Of a stretch of DNA of 64,000 bases, positions 2,358 to 5,652 are shown piece by piece. Made by a program: the position numbers and the translations under genes. Source of the stretch: an uncultured Ignavibacteriaceae bacterium (GTDB lineage: Bacteria; Bacteroidota; Ignavibacteria; Ignavibacteriales; Ignavibacteriaceae); the NCBI GenBank assembly GCA_964625575.1, contig CAZVBQ010000017.1:7628-71627 (forward strand), in the 5' to 3' direction. Each line of letters starts with the position of its first letter. Within the stretch, counting starts at the first letter, position 1. Under the pieces are notes generated by a model. It saw nothing but the letters and a program-made list of their open reading frames with translations. It was not told the DNA's origin and did no database searches.

Positions 2358-3743
2358 TTACTTCCGGTATCTCGAAATATACTCTTCCACTTCGGGGATG
2401 CCGCCCTGGAAGATGAGGTACCCGTTGCTGGGTTCACGTTCGGTTATCTCACCCGCGATCGGGGTTAGCATTATCTCTTTCACCCGGGTGAGGTCGTCTG
2501 TTTGTCCGAGAGCCCAGCCAAGTTTCATGTACGCCACTTCGGGAAGCATGTTGGCGCATGGCACCACGCCGAGTTCCATCATGTCGCGACCGGTATCGTA
2601 AACATACATCTGCACATAACCCCAAAGAGTTTGTACTGTCATGTAGATTGCCACGCCTGTTTCCTTCGCCCTTTTAAGCGCGGGGTAGAGGGGCTTGTTC
2701 ACATGGCCCAGTCCTGTTCCGGCGATCACAATGCCGCGGTAACCATTGTCGATCATCGAATCTATCATGTCGGGTTTCATGTTCGGGTAGTAGTAAACGA
2801 TCCCGACCTTCTCCTCGAACGCGGTATTGATAACAACATTTTTGTCGTGCCGTCTCTTTTTATAATCTGCCCTGAGAGGCGTTATCTTCTCCCGGCTGAC
2901 CATTCCGATCGGGATGTCACCAATCGTTCTGAAGGTCGAGCGGTAACTTGAGTGCATCTTCCTCACGCGGGTGCCCCTGTGGAGGAGACCGTACTCATCA
3001 GAAGTGGGGCCGAACATGCAGACCATGACTTCAGCCATGTCGCTCTCCGCGGCGGTTTTAACGCTGTGCATAAGATTAAGAGCCGCATCCGAAGAGGGAC
3101 GGTCACTCGAGCGCTGTGAACCAACCATCACGATCGGAACAGGTGAGTTCTGAACCATGAACGAAAGTATCGCGGCAGTGTGGTGCATCGTATCGGTACC
3201 GTGACCGATAACAATGCCCTGCACCCCCTTCTCGATCTCCCTGCCGATTGCCTGAGCGGTGCCGATCCACTGTTCGGGACCCATGTTCTCACTGAACACG
3301 CCGTAGAGTTTTTCTGTCTCAAGGTTGCAGATATCAGCAAGTTCGGGTACTGAACCGTAAAGCTCACCGGGCGAGAAAGCGGGGATAACCGCGCCTGTTC
3401 TGTAGTCGAGCCGGCTGGCAATGGTACCGCCCGTTCCGAGGAGTTTAACCCTCGGTTTTTTCGGGTCGTAAGGGAATTCCTTTTCGGGGATCTTGTAGTG
3501 GGCTTCTTTTCTGCCTCCAATTCCGATGTTCGTGATCCTTTCGGCGGCAATTCCGATGTTGTAACCTGATCGAAGCTTTATTACGACGTGTTTGTCGTCA
3601 GCGGTTTCAGAGCGTGGGAGCACAATGCCTTTGTAGGTGCCCGCTTCTGTTTCCACTTCGACATCGCTCCAGATCATGGCGGAGAAATTTTTCAGAACCG
3701 AGAGCGCCTCGCCCCGGTAGCCTTTGTAGTCGTTATCAGCCAT
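2358..3743 (-). CDS. gatD: Glu-tRNA(Gln) amidotransferase subunit D (archaeal-type GatD; asparaginase-fold)
   Basis: GatD-specific N-terminal domain followed by asparaginase signatures LLGTGGTIASRLDYRTGAV and IVIGHGTDTM. Start set at ATG 3743, preceded by GGAGG (GAGGAGGTGTACAATG), rather than the ORF-track start 3758. Overlaps the gatE stop by 8 nt. Stop TAA at 2358-2360. Confidence 0.85.
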   Translation of the reverse strand: MADNDYKGYRGEALSVLKNFSAMIWSDVEVETEAGTYKGIVLPRSETADDKHVVIKLRSGYNIGIAAERITNIGIGGRKEAHYKIPEKEFPYDPKKPRVKLLGTGGTIASRLDYRTGAVIPAFSPGELYGSVPELADICNLETEKLYGVFSENMGPEQWIGTAQAIGREIEKGVQGIVIGHGTDTMHHTAAILSFMVQNSPVPIVMVGSQRSSDRPSSDAALNLMHSVKTAAESDMAEVMVCMFGPTSDEYGLLHRGTRVRKMHSSYRSTFRTIGDIPIGMVSREKITPLRADYKKRRHDKNVVINTAFEEKVGIVYYYPNMKPDMIDSMIDNGYRGIVIAGTGLGHVNKPLYPALKRAKETGVAIYMTVQTLWGYVQMYVYDTGRDMMELGVVPCANMLPEVAYMKLGWALGQTDDLTRVKEIMLTPIAGEITEREPSNGYLIFQGGIPEVEEYISRYRK

Positions 3744-5652
3744 TGTACACCTCCTCAACTATCGCGTTCACATCTTTTCCGTTGGCTCTGAACCTTAGTT
3801 CCCGCATGGCCAGGCCCATTGTCAGGCGCTTGCCGTTTACGGGGTCTCTTAGATCCATTCCCGATACTGTTTTTGCTGCGTCTTTTACAACATCTTTAAT
3901 TTCAGATGCCGTCGCGGGCGAGGCAACAAGTTCAGCAGGCAGACCTCCGTTTCCGGAGGCAGCCCCCATCAGAAAGAACAACGGATCGCGAAGTATCTTC
4001 CCTTTCGAATGATCGTTGAGAAGTGATCCAACGATTTCAGGTGTTAATTTAAAGTTTTTACCAAACTTCCTTTTCAGCGGTTTTATCCTGTCTACGAGTA
4101 ACTCAGAAACGAACAGGGCGTTCAAACCCAATTTTCCGGTTGCCTCTTCAAAAACAGGAGCGAACTCTGAAATCGCGAGCGTCTTTGCCCTGTGAGCGGG
4201 AATGCCGAGCCCGTAATATTGCTTTTCCCTTTCCCAAACGGGGGTGGGGAGCCCTTCCCTGATCCTCGCGAGCCGTTCAGGCGTGATCTTCTTGGGTGGA
4301 AGATCGGTATCGGGGTACATCCTGTCGGGTCCTGGGAGTATCCTTTCAAAACCGTTGGTGCCGTCTCTAAGTGCCTGACGGGTTTCAGAAGGCACGCCGA
4401 TAGTGGCCTCTTTCGCCCTTATCACCACTTCGTTAGCACCGGCAGGGGCGTCAATTTCGTCACCCCAGACAAGAACTATCACGTCATCCTCGGTGGCACC
4501 CACTGTTTTCTTCAGCGCGCTCCACTCAGAGGAGGCGATTGTTTCACTTGGACTGTCGGAGTGAATAATATTCGGGAGAGTGGTAAGACACGCGATAACC
4601 CGCACCCTGTCTGATATCTCACGCGAGAAGTGGGTGTCGGTCTGTGTCTCCCACCGTAACAGACCCCTGTACCCCTTCAGCATTACGCACATCACCTTCA
4701 TGCCGGAGGAAATGGCGCTTGCCACGGGTTGGTAGCGGGTCTTCCTTAAAAGTTTTGTTACATCCGTGGTTGTTGAAGTGAAGGTCTCCGGGGTTATTCC
4801 CCTTCTGTGGAGTTCATTCCTCAGGCGCAGGAGGTTCCACTGCCTCATCGCCTCATTATAAGTGAGGAGGGGTATCAACGGTATCCTCGGCACGCCTTTT
4901 ATTTCAATGCGGGTTCCGCCCGTCACGCTTACATTGACATCCTGACGCGCGGCGCCGATACCTGTCCTGACTTTACCGGTACTTCTGGCGATCCTTCTGA
5001 TGAGTTCACCAACCTCCGCCACTTCCTGTGGCGTGCACATGTCGGGACCCGTTACTGTTTCGATCAGGGGCATCCCGAGCCTGTCGGTTATGTAGGTGCG
5101 GCGGTGGCCTATGTCGCTAACTTCGCGGCACGAATCCTCCTCAATTGAGAGTTGAATCACACTGATCTCACGGTCTTTGAAGGGGATGCTGCCATCGAGG
5201 CAGACGATCGCGGTACGCTGAAAACCGGTTGGGATGCTACCGTCAAGGTACTGCTTCCGGGCAATATGCACCTCATCCACCATCGAGGATCCGTAGATCA
5301 TTCCGATTCCGAAGGCGATATCGAGGGCTTCGTCGTTTATTTCAAAGGGGGGCGTGTCATCCATCTCGTAAGTGCAGACGGTTTCACGGTTTATTCTGTA
5401 GATTATCTCTTTTTTGGTTTTGAACTCCATCAGGGCGGTGCCGTCGTACTCTCCAAGTTCGGAGAGGGTCGGTCTCATGTGCCGGAGTATCTCGGCGTTG
5501 TAGTTTTCACTGTATCTTCCTGCAGGGCACCTGCAGAAAAGTTTTTTTGATGTAAGCAGTTGCTGATGCACTTCCAGCCCCGATTTGAATCCCACCGCGC
5601 GGTAGTCTTCATCCGTCATTTCGCTGAAAGTCTTGAATTTGTGATCCGTCAT
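3736..5652 (-). CDS. gatE: Glu-tRNA(Gln) amidotransferase subunit E (archaeal-type GatE)
   Basis: N-terminus GFKSGLEVHQQLLTSKKLFCRCP matches the GatE/GatB catalytic-domain start. The ~640 aa length, with an internal insertion domain and a C-terminal tail, is typical of GatE rather than the ~480 aa GatB. Start probably ATG 5652 (GGGAGAAGATACAGAATG); the ORF track opens at 5712. Confidence 0.85.
   Translation of the reverse strand: MTDHKFKTFSEMTDEDYRAVGFKSGLEVHQQLLTSKKLFCRCPAGRYSENYNAEILRHMRPTLSELGEYDGTALMEFKTKKEIIYRINRETVCTYEMDDTPPFEINDEALDIAFGIGMIYGSSMVDEVHIARKQYLDGSIPTGFQRTAIVCLDGSIPFKDREISVIQLSIEEDSCREVSDIGHRRTYITDRLGMPLIETVTGPDMCTPQEVAEVGELIRRIARSTGKVRTGIGAARQDVNVSVTGGTRIEIKGVPRIPLIPLLTYNEAMRQWNLLRLRNELHRRGITPETFTSTTTDVTKLLRKTRYQPVASAISSGMKVMCVMLKGYRGLLRWETQTDTHFSREISDRVRVIACLTTLPNIIHSDSPSETIASSEWSALKKTVGATEDDVIVLVWGDEIDAPAGANEVVIRAKEATIGVPSETRQALRDGTNGFERILPGPDRMYPDTDLPPKKITPERLARIREGLPTPVWEREKQYYGLGIPAHRAKTLAISEFAPVFEEATGKLGLNALFVSELLVDRIKPLKRKFGKNFKLTPEIVGSLLNDHSKGKILRDPLFFLMGAASGNGGLPAELVASPATASEIKDVVKDAAKTVSGMDLRDPVNGKRLTMGLAMRELRFRANGKDVNAIVEEVYNG

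Follow-up and report, generated by a model that had tools for sequence, protein, structure and literature searches.

An archaeal-type GatDE amidotransferase operon in an Ignavibacteria-class bacterium, and its coexistence with GlnRS in related bacteria

Can a bacterium form Gln-tRNA(Gln) through GatDE, the amidotransferase of archaea, and what would such an enzyme do there? The question is raised by a 64,000-nt stretch of DNA (hereafter the window, whose numbering is used throughout; contig CAZVBQ010000017.1 of an uncultured Ignavibacteriaceae bacterium) in which two minus-strand genes, gatE and gatD, lie side by side. GatDE has been called an archaeal signature protein, exclusively archaeal, and reviews to 2022 still say so; the archaeal lack of glutaminyl-tRNA synthetase (GlnRS) has in turn been put down to an unusual tRNA-Gln with which GatDE co-evolved (PMC2330236, PMC2811023, PMC9499178), GlnRS being absent from all archaea (PMC9499178). 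The first-pass annotation of the window had taken the two genes for an archaeal-type pair acquired by lateral transfer, and had asked whether this pair replaces the bacterial amidotransferase GatCAB, coexists with it or has another substrate. We report here that they are a true GatE/GatD pair in a bacterial host, that the pair is an old trait of its lineage, and that related bacteria encode GlnRS as well. Judged from its sequence, the pair is probably a working GatDE-type amidotransferase of archaeal origin that serves an indirect route to Gln-tRNA(Gln).

The GatE protein passes both NCBIfam equivalog models of its family, NF003107 (516 bits, cut-off 456) and TIGR00134 (437 bits, cut-off 319.55), while no GatB model gives more than 124 bits (cut-offs 315-680; 338 for the best of them). 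Pfam finds a single GatB_N domain at amino acids (aa) 24-460, interrupted by a large insertion, and the motifs GFKSGLEVHQQL and KLFCRCP stand at aa 25-43; at 638 aa, the protein agrees with the earlier description of a GatE of ~640 aa with a GatB-like core and extra domains. The only solved GatDE structures are 1ZQ1 (Pyrococcus abyssi) and 2D6F (Methanothermobacter thermautotrophicus), to which GatE aligns over nearly its full length (aa 12-633 to 1ZQ1_C with 336 bits, aa 16-634 to 2D6F_C with 318 bits). An AlphaFold2 model of the protein (mean predicted local distance difference test score, pLDDT, 84.3) has the GatE chains of these two structures as its best PDB matches (target-normalised template modelling score 0.77-0.80), followed by GatB chains (Foldseek E 1e-19 to 1e-25) and then by bacterial aspartyl-tRNA synthetase (AspRS; 1c0a_A, 1eqr_A), whose matches run through the insertion domain; in relatives, PF02938 is found for this domain. 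The Mg2+ ligands of M. thermautotrophicus GatE, His15, Glu157 and Glu184, are essential by mutagenesis (PMC2330236), and their counterparts in the window protein, H29, E171 and E198, are invariant in 34 homologues. Taken from the alignments and the model, the architecture of GatE appears complete, with a catalytic cradle, an AspRS-like insertion, a helical domain and a YqeY-like tail.

GatD likewise passes its two equivalog models, NF003217 (523 bits, cut-off 310) and TIGR02153 (518 bits, cut-off 324). With TIGR00519, the subfamily model of type I asparaginases, its score is above the cut-off too (389.5 bits, cut-off 260.5) and below those of the GatD equivalogs. The GatD-specific N-terminal domain and the asparaginase fold that had been recognised by eye were recovered as Pfam GatD_N (PF18195), Asparaginase (PF00710) and Asparaginase_C (PF17763), and the motifs TGGTIAS and HGTDT were located at aa 104-110 and aa 181-185, together with a VRKMH motif that holds K262. 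In GatD the active site is made of a Thr nucleophile and a Thr-Lys-Asp triad (PMC2330236). The nucleophile T107 (in TGGTIAS), T183-D184 (in HGTDT) and K262 are conserved with respect to 1ZQ1_A and 2D6F_A, with each of which GatD aligns nearly from end to end (414 bits). Altogether, equivalog scores, structure alignments and the GatE model identify a true GatE/GatD pair; the candidate of an ordinary asparaginase beside a GatB or YqeY fusion was ruled out by the margins of the GatD and GatE equivalogs, the GatB scores below cut-off and the presence of GatD_N.

As open reading frames, gatD and gatE fill positions 2358..5652 exactly, with the gatD stop codon at the lower end and the gatE start codon at the upper end, and they form a two-gene operon. 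The 8-nt overlap of gatE and gatD supports translational coupling, as had been supposed, and a Shine-Dalgarno-like motif stands ahead of each start. Upstream of gatE we found a single weak sigma-70-like match, no more than shuffled sequence gives; Rfam recognises no leader element in this region (a T-box, for example), nor does any promoter or terminator stand out convincingly against the shuffles.

The genes around the operon are those of a bacterium. The window encodes Por_Secre_tail domains (the C-terminal sorting domains of the type IX secretion system), a C25 peptidase, an S46 peptidase, many histidine kinases, an OEP/AcrB/HlyD efflux pump of the TolC/RND (resistance-nodulation-division) type with a TetR regulator, a trp operon, citrate lyase and Na+-oxaloacetate decarboxylase, and the bacterial character first assigned to it is confirmed by synteny of Ignavibacteria type. 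The order S46 peptidase / gatD gatE / histidine kinase / trp operon is also that of three Ignavibacteria-type contigs of metagenome-assembled genomes (MAGs); in the syntenic contigs the peptidase is 89/75% and TrpB 77% identical, with GatE itself at 89/72%. An identical GatE protein with the same neighbours occurs on independent JGI and Logan assemblies. The GC content is 0.53 for gatD and 0.52 for gatE, and the GC content, third-position GC content and codon-usage distance of both genes fall within the range of the other 35 window genes, near the adjacent trp genes, so that the proposed comparison with the flanking genes reveals a native composition without a break. A recent horizontal-transfer island is ruled out by this composition together with the conserved synteny, and a chimeric contig by the agreement of independent assemblies and the lack of a compositional break. 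Separately, a complete trp operon (trpE, G, D, C, F, B, A; Pfam, identical contig L081, L-numbers denoting the fetched GatDE/GlnRS loci of relatives) was placed at 8885-15339 on the minus strand, past the histidine-kinase gene that diverges from gatE.

In order to describe the distribution of the pair, one genome per GTDB species was scanned with a GatE identity threshold of at least 60%, which returned at least 80 bacterial genomes, the carriers including complete chromosomes of 4.2-5.5 Mb and contigs longer than 1 Mb. Among the 80 species genomes fetched, gatD adjoins gatE in 78, and the two remaining contigs stop just past gatE. Identity to the window proteins ranges from 77 to 99% for GatD and from 60 to 89% for GatE, a strong conservation of both proteins that suggests purifying selection. 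The better conservation of GatD is a trait of the family, because it is seen against the archaeal structures too (414 bits as compared with 318-336 bits). All of the nearest GatE proteins (89-60% identity) belong to MAGs that bear the labels Ignavibacteria, Ignavibacteriaceae, Kapabacteria or "Bacteroidetes", and NCBI and JGI annotation already names the closest bacterial homologues GatE. Flanking genes are kept in close relatives only and diverge at about the rate of GatE; apart from glnS in one sub-group, no neighbour is conserved beyond the pair itself. The gatE-gatD pair behaves as a unit of its own, an operon passed on by vertical descent.

When more distant members were used in a profile search, GatE was found in further MAGs, labelled Zixibacteria, Calditrichia, CSSED10-310 and others. 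In the Calditrichia-labelled locus gatE and gatD overlap and lie among bacterial dnaA, ribosomal protein bL28 and PNPase genes, and the Zixibacteria-labelled contigs L093 and L094 (10001-11938) carry gatE alone, gatD being absent from the 10 kb that flank it on each side. All taxon labels are those of the MAG submitters; Hyphomicrobiales, Clostridiales, Chloroflexota and some Aminicenantes labels sit on sequences nested among Ignavibacteria, the first three on near-identical clades, and were distrusted. Besides, gatE is called as just 428 aa in L089 (13077-14363) and the gatD matches are split over two frames in L010 and L029, which could reflect frameshifts, pseudogenes or long-read assembly errors. 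GatDE is an old trait, vertically inherited in Ignavibacteria/Kapabacteria and also present in other lineages of the FCB (Fibrobacteres-Chlorobi-Bacteroidetes) type. Of the lateral transfer first proposed, the archaeal source is retained on the trees described below, and a transfer that is recent or private to this genome is not.

An exhaustive search over 1.84 billion cluster representatives with the window GatE gave matches in two classes, a first one at 42-57% identity and, after a drop, a second one at the 31-39% typical of archaeal GatE (organism names were available on 4 of the 20 looked-up 50%-identity clusters). In neighbour-joining trees the bacterial-type GatE clade is split from all other sequences with 100% bootstrap. 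The nearest GatE proteins outside this clade form a group with Heimdall-, Thor- and Odinarchaeota-labelled members, and the split that separates the bacterial-type clade and six Asgard-group sequences from other archaea has 79% bootstrap. When rooted with five bacterial GatB sequences (that of Staphylococcus aureus identical to 2DF4_B, the other four taken from PDB alignments), the bacterial-type clade is monophyletic in 90% of the replicates and sister to all archaea in just 8.5%; in the best outgroup-rooted tree it groups with a Heimdall-labelled sequence. The archaeal origin suspected from the outset accordingly finds support in the position of the clade nearest to Asgard archaea. With moderate confidence, the trees are best read as an ancient transfer from archaea to bacteria followed by vertical descent, a direction and an age that we infer. 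The probable donor was an archaeon with its kin either among the Asgard archaea or in a single archaeal-looking lineage that is itself unplaced.

This archaeal-looking lineage (P0292, P0310 and P0324, P-numbers denoting individual GatE homologues) lies within the bacterial-type clade. In L095, a tRNA-Gln(CUG) whose first pair is A1-U72, as in archaea (11919-11990, plus strand), lies 10 nt past the gatE stop codon; glnA comes after the tRNA gene and gatD is divergent upstream, making a compact 'glutamine cluster', with an NMD3-family gene ~5 kb away. In the P0324/P0310 lineage (L092 6732-11938; L096 8385-13246) gatD and gatE are divergent, with a glutamine synthetase gene between or beside them, and glnA adjoins the gatD/gatE genes in L092, L095 and L096 alike. 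The A1-U72 tRNA-Gln and the NMD3 match point to an archaeal identity of the lineage. The evidence is mixed, since the closest protein to P0292, namely P0374, is labelled Bacteroidetes, and NCBIfam scans of the neighbouring genes are ambiguous as to domain. A record of this lineage, CP070751.1, carries the NCBI label Thermoplasmata archaeon; its size of 5.16 Mb is unusual for that label.

Does GatDE stand alone in these bacteria? We searched ~1.7 Mb of related loci by tblastn, the queries being the GlnRS and AsnRS of Escherichia coli and the GatA and GatB of S. aureus (this GatB identical to 2DF4_B). Full-length GlnRS genes were found in L021, L029 and L061, with 56-59% identity to the E. coli query; for the L029 and L021 proteins the glnS equivalog TIGR00440 gives 716-724 bits, above its cut-off of 425.8, and both display the class I motifs. 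In four bacterial genomes (L029, L061, L083/L084 and L089) glnS is convergent with gatD and abuts it or lies within 70 nt, L083/L084 lying on a 557-kb contig of GCA_016707525.1, and in L021 a distance of 7.5 kb separates glnS from gatE. The group is rich in close GlnRS homologues (79-87% identity), and in other genomes glnS is located elsewhere. GatDE and GlnRS coexist and are linked in relatives, whose GatE, where glnS-linked, is ~65% identical to that of the window; the window's own genome presumably carries glnS too. The question of replacement, coexistence or another substrate is in this way answered in part: coexistence is established with a bona fide GlnRS, encoded next to GatDE in these relatives.

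How would the enzyme act in such a cell? If the homologous enzyme of archaea is taken as the model, two GatE subunits would be bound to a dimer of GatD. GatE would bind the mischarged Glu-tRNA(Gln) and, with ATP and Mg2+ at H29, E171 and E198, convert it to gamma-phosphoryl-Glu-tRNA(Gln), while GatD would hydrolyse Gln or Asn at T107 and T183-D184-K262 and release ammonia; this ammonia would travel through an intramolecular inter-subunit tunnel to GatE, where the intermediate would be amidated to Gln-tRNA(Gln), as in the GatDE mechanism reviewed in PMC2330236. In bacteria, such an enzyme would provide an indirect route to Gln-tRNA(Gln) beside GlnRS, or would convert the Glu-tRNA(Gln) produced by a non-discriminating GluRS, and unlike in archaea it would most likely not be the sole route. 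The parts that this mechanism needs are all intact; the activity and the in vivo substrate are what we infer. Glu-tRNA(Gln) is the probable substrate, because the conserved gene links lead only to glutamine (glnS, glnA and tRNA-Gln) and because the acceptor-stem loop of GatE type is kept.

The tRNA-binding parts of GatE suggest where the bacterial enzyme may have diverged. The tail motif GxxAxGx of GatE has been linked to rejection of Asp-tRNA(Asn) (PMC2811023). This archaeal motif is not kept in the window GatE, which has PVNGKRL at aa 604-610; the tail consensus is G-E-R-A-F-x-x-LMG in the archaeal clade and x-P-E-A-R-x-R-Y-LMG in the bacterial-type clade, and the window tail, PVNGKRLTMG, partly resembles the KNGKGK of GatB. 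The loop that matches the U1-A72-reading 3-10 turn of GatB keeps the GatE form (KVRTG in the window, KVKRG in archaea), and the catalytic motifs are the same in both clades. These comparisons give only a hint that in bacterial GatE the chemistry may be unchanged and tRNA recognition retuned; the tRNA-Gln of the bacterial carriers is expected to be U1-A72 rather than A1-U72.

Several observations weigh against a working Glu-tRNA(Gln) amidotransferase of archaeal origin. The GlnRS of the relatives leaves such an enzyme not obviously needed, unless GluRS is non-discriminating. No tRNA-Gln was detected by ARAGORN and Rfam in the window, in the 80 genome loci or in the bacterial ones of 17 further loci, the tRNAs of the bacterial loci being Asp, Arg, His, Pro and Ser only. 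Pfam GatB_Yqey stays below threshold on the tail of the window GatE, although PF02637 is present in relatives. As for the origin, the trees are neighbour-joining only and have long branches, and the labels of many MAGs are unreliable.

A more specific form of the proposal is tentative, and we would sooner doubt it than adopt it: GatDE may have adapted to bacterial tRNAs and become a second glutamine-charging system that is non-redundant with GlnRS. Its possible forms include a split of the two tRNA-Gln isoacceptors between GlnRS and GluRS/GatDE, a takeover of GatCAB jobs including Asn-tRNA(Asn), or the retention of an A1-U72 tRNA-Gln of archaeal type that was transferred together with GatDE and is its private substrate. 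If true, this second system would be a natural counter-example to the mutual exclusion of GatDE and GlnRS through tight co-evolution of GatDE with tRNA-Gln.

The takeover of GatCAB functions may also be taken as an explanation in its own right, which we consider unlikely: GatDE would have displaced GatCAB, or would complement it, with a changed or broadened tRNA specificity, reading U1-A72 and amidating Asp-tRNA(Asn) too or instead, and would supply Asn-tRNA(Asn) where GlnRS is present and AsnRS absent, a corollary that is equally doubtful. The absence from the bacterial clade of the motif tied to Asp-tRNA(Asn) rejection would fit (PMC2811023). So would the GlnRS of the relatives, beside which an enzyme specific for Glu seems superfluous, and there is a parallel in bacteria that have GatCAB as well as GlnRS and employ the amidotransferase for Asn (PMC4206432). 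Also in its favour, gatA, gatB and gatC were seen neither in the 64-kb window, which has no asnS or glnS either, nor in the ~1.7 Mb of loci, where tblastn returned no GatB, GatA or AsnRS, but these loci are GatDE/GlnRS neighbourhoods only, where absence of gatCAB says little and proves nothing. An amidase encoded near gatDE in L005 (14740-16407, minus strand; NF006006, 752 bits) was ruled out as GatA, given 224 bits with the gatA model (cut-off 481) and an N-terminus that by eye is signal-peptide- or Tat-like, so that the protein is apparently secreted. Nor can the class as a whole be said to lack GatCAB, since Ignavibacterium album appears in a survey of 2014 as a carrier of gatCAB and of GlnRS (PMC3927822, supplement 2). 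Finally, the genes that neighbour gatDE indicate glutamine and not asparagine, no aspS or asnS linkage was seen in the sampled loci, and the loop at the place of the 3-10 turn has the GatE form.

Less probable still is a role outside routine tRNA charging, such as tRNA-dependent glutamine synthesis, nitrogen sensing, stress quality control of mischarged tRNA, or action of GatD mainly as an asparaginase or glutaminase. Coexistence with GlnRS, clustering with glutamine synthetase in one lineage, the lone gatE of the Zixibacteria-labelled loci and the far stronger conservation of GatD than of GatE could be read in this direction. However, the last of these extends to the archaeal structures and is thus a family trait, all catalytic residues are kept in both subunits, the pair is adjacent in nearly all of the fetched genomes, and in archaea GatD has no glutaminase activity unless Glu-tRNA(Gln) is bound to GatE (PMC2330236). 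An artefact, be it an archaeal or chimeric contig or a misread asparaginase with a GatB/YqeY fusion, is hardly credible: GatD does pass an asparaginase model and some MAG labels (Hyphomicrobiales, Clostridiales, Chloroflexota) are plainly wrong, but both proteins score far higher with their own equivalogs than with asparaginase or GatB models, GatD_N is present, composition is unbroken, and the same gene order with bacterial flanks recurs in independent assemblies, complete bacterial chromosomes of 4-5 Mb being among the carriers.

Table 1. Features of the gatE-gatD operon in the window, and glnS genes beside gatD in the fetched loci of relatives (positions of the latter are those within the locus named).
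Feature	Position	Strand	Basis
gatE, tRNA-dependent kinase/transamidase subunit, 638 aa	3736..5652	-	NF003107, TIGR00134, alignments to 1ZQ1_C/2D6F_C, AlphaFold2 model
gatD, glutaminase/asparaginase-like ammonia-donor subunit, 461 aa	2358..3743	-	NF003217, TIGR02153, Pfam, alignments to 1ZQ1_A/2D6F_A
8-nt overlap ATGGCTGA, gatD start codon within the end of gatE	3736..3743	-	Read from sequence
GAGGAGG, Shine-Dalgarno-like, 7 nt 5' of the gatD ATG (3743), inside gatE; putative function	3750..3756	-	Sequence
GGGAG, Shine-Dalgarno-like, 10 nt 5' of the gatE ATG (5652); putative function	5663..5667	-	Sequence
169-nt gap that separates gatE from the histidine-kinase gene divergent to it; presumed promoter region	5653..5821	-	Open-reading-frame positions
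GatE catalytic cradle segment with Mg2+ ligands H29, E171, E198	5058..5568	-	Gap-free alignment to 2D6F_C, 14-residue offset
GatE AspRS-like insertion domain, ~aa 286-420, boundaries approximate	4393..4797	-	Split GatB_N, 1ZQ1_C/2D6F_C alignment, AspRS fold matches
GatE helical and YqeY-like tail domains, ~aa 456-638	3739..4287	-	Structure alignments, AlphaFold2 model, PF02637 in relatives
GatD-specific N-terminal domain, aa 26-73	3525..3668	-	PF18195 GatD_N, 57.8 bits (cut-off 25.7)
GatD asparaginase-fold domains, aa 98-425, with T107, T183-D184, K262	2469..3452	-	PF00710, PF17763, motif positions
glnS beside gatD, L029	13291-14973	-	
glnS beside gatD, L061	~13319-14968	-	
glnS beside gatD, L084	13363-15048	-	
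glnS beside gatD, L089	10001-11710	+	

Three further regions of the window were recorded in passing. At 61154-63771 on the minus strand lies a three-domain ATP-dependent DNA ligase gene (DNA_ligase_A_N, _M and _C) that overlaps a downstream metallo-beta-lactamase-fold gene by 4 nt, another pair in the window with archaeal/eukaryotic-type affinity. A minus-strand run at 43648-55819 holds genes for citrate lyase alpha (CitF), a CitE-like/acyl carrier protein fusion, a PrpD-like protein, aconitase, isocitrate/isopropylmalate dehydrogenase, the beta and gamma subunits of Na+-oxaloacetate decarboxylase and a carboxyltransferase, and looks like a citrate-fermentation cluster or a branch of the tricarboxylic acid cycle. 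At 37224-38168, a tRNA-Asp(GTC) gene stands beside a low-GC (0.41) AbiEi-like antitoxin gene, possibly a small element integrated at the tRNA gene.

The phyletic pattern given in the literature, that of an exclusively archaeal enzyme in genomes without GlnRS, is not what we find, the hosts being bacterial and GlnRS being encoded beside gatD in relatives; this pattern is a claim about distribution and not a molecular requirement. The enzyme family is well known, its bacterial genes are already correctly named by annotation pipelines, and its chemistry is not apparently new. In the full-text literature searched, which includes few subscription journals, no report was found of bacterial GatDE or of GatDE together with Ignavibacteria, Caldithrix or Zixibacteria, and GatDE is absent from the text of the I. 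album genome paper and of the Melioribacter asparaginase paper. Within that literature, GatDE as a stable trait of a large bacterial lineage seems unrecognised, and so do the adjacency to GlnRS in some genomes and the sharing of the bacterial clade with an archaeal-looking lineage next to Asgard archaea. Since GatDE is conserved in a large bacterial lineage and its genes abut the GlnRS gene in several genomes, nature has already combined it with a bacterial translation apparatus. The tRNA requirements of GatDE, its sharing of a cell with GlnRS, the replacement of GatCAB, and an origin in the last common ancestor as against transfer thereby become testable. A practical consequence is that gatD and gatE are unsafe as archaeal marker genes in metagenome binning.

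Among known systems, the archaeal GatDE enzymes of M. thermautotrophicus and P. abyssi are the nearest, with the same subunits, domain order, Mg2+ ligands and GatD triad. The bacterial pair differs from them in its host, in forming a separate clade with ~33-44% identity to archaeal GatE, in the GatE tail, which lacks the GxxAxGx motif, and in having relatives that also encode GlnRS, often right beside gatD, a coexistence not reported in archaea. Stand-alone type I L-asparaginase shares its fold and catalytic residues with the two C-terminal domains of GatD, while GatD has in addition the GatD_N domain, higher scores with the GatD equivalogs and coupling to gatE. Bacterial GatCAB shares the overall chemistry and the cellular task in bacteria, and GatE is a paralogue of GatB with which its cradle domain aligns; GatDE, in contrast, has neither the GatA amidase nor GatC, its glutaminase is an asparaginase-fold protein, and GatE carries the AspRS-like insertion and does not present the GatB-type 3-10 turn and KxGKxK motif as such. 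GlnRS and an amidotransferase coexist in Thermus, Deinococcus and Bdellovibrio too (PMC4206432; PMC3927822). Their amidotransferase is GatCAB and is used for asparagine, whereas the enzyme described here is GatDE, which is Glu-specific in archaea and is linked to glnS in several bacterial genomes.

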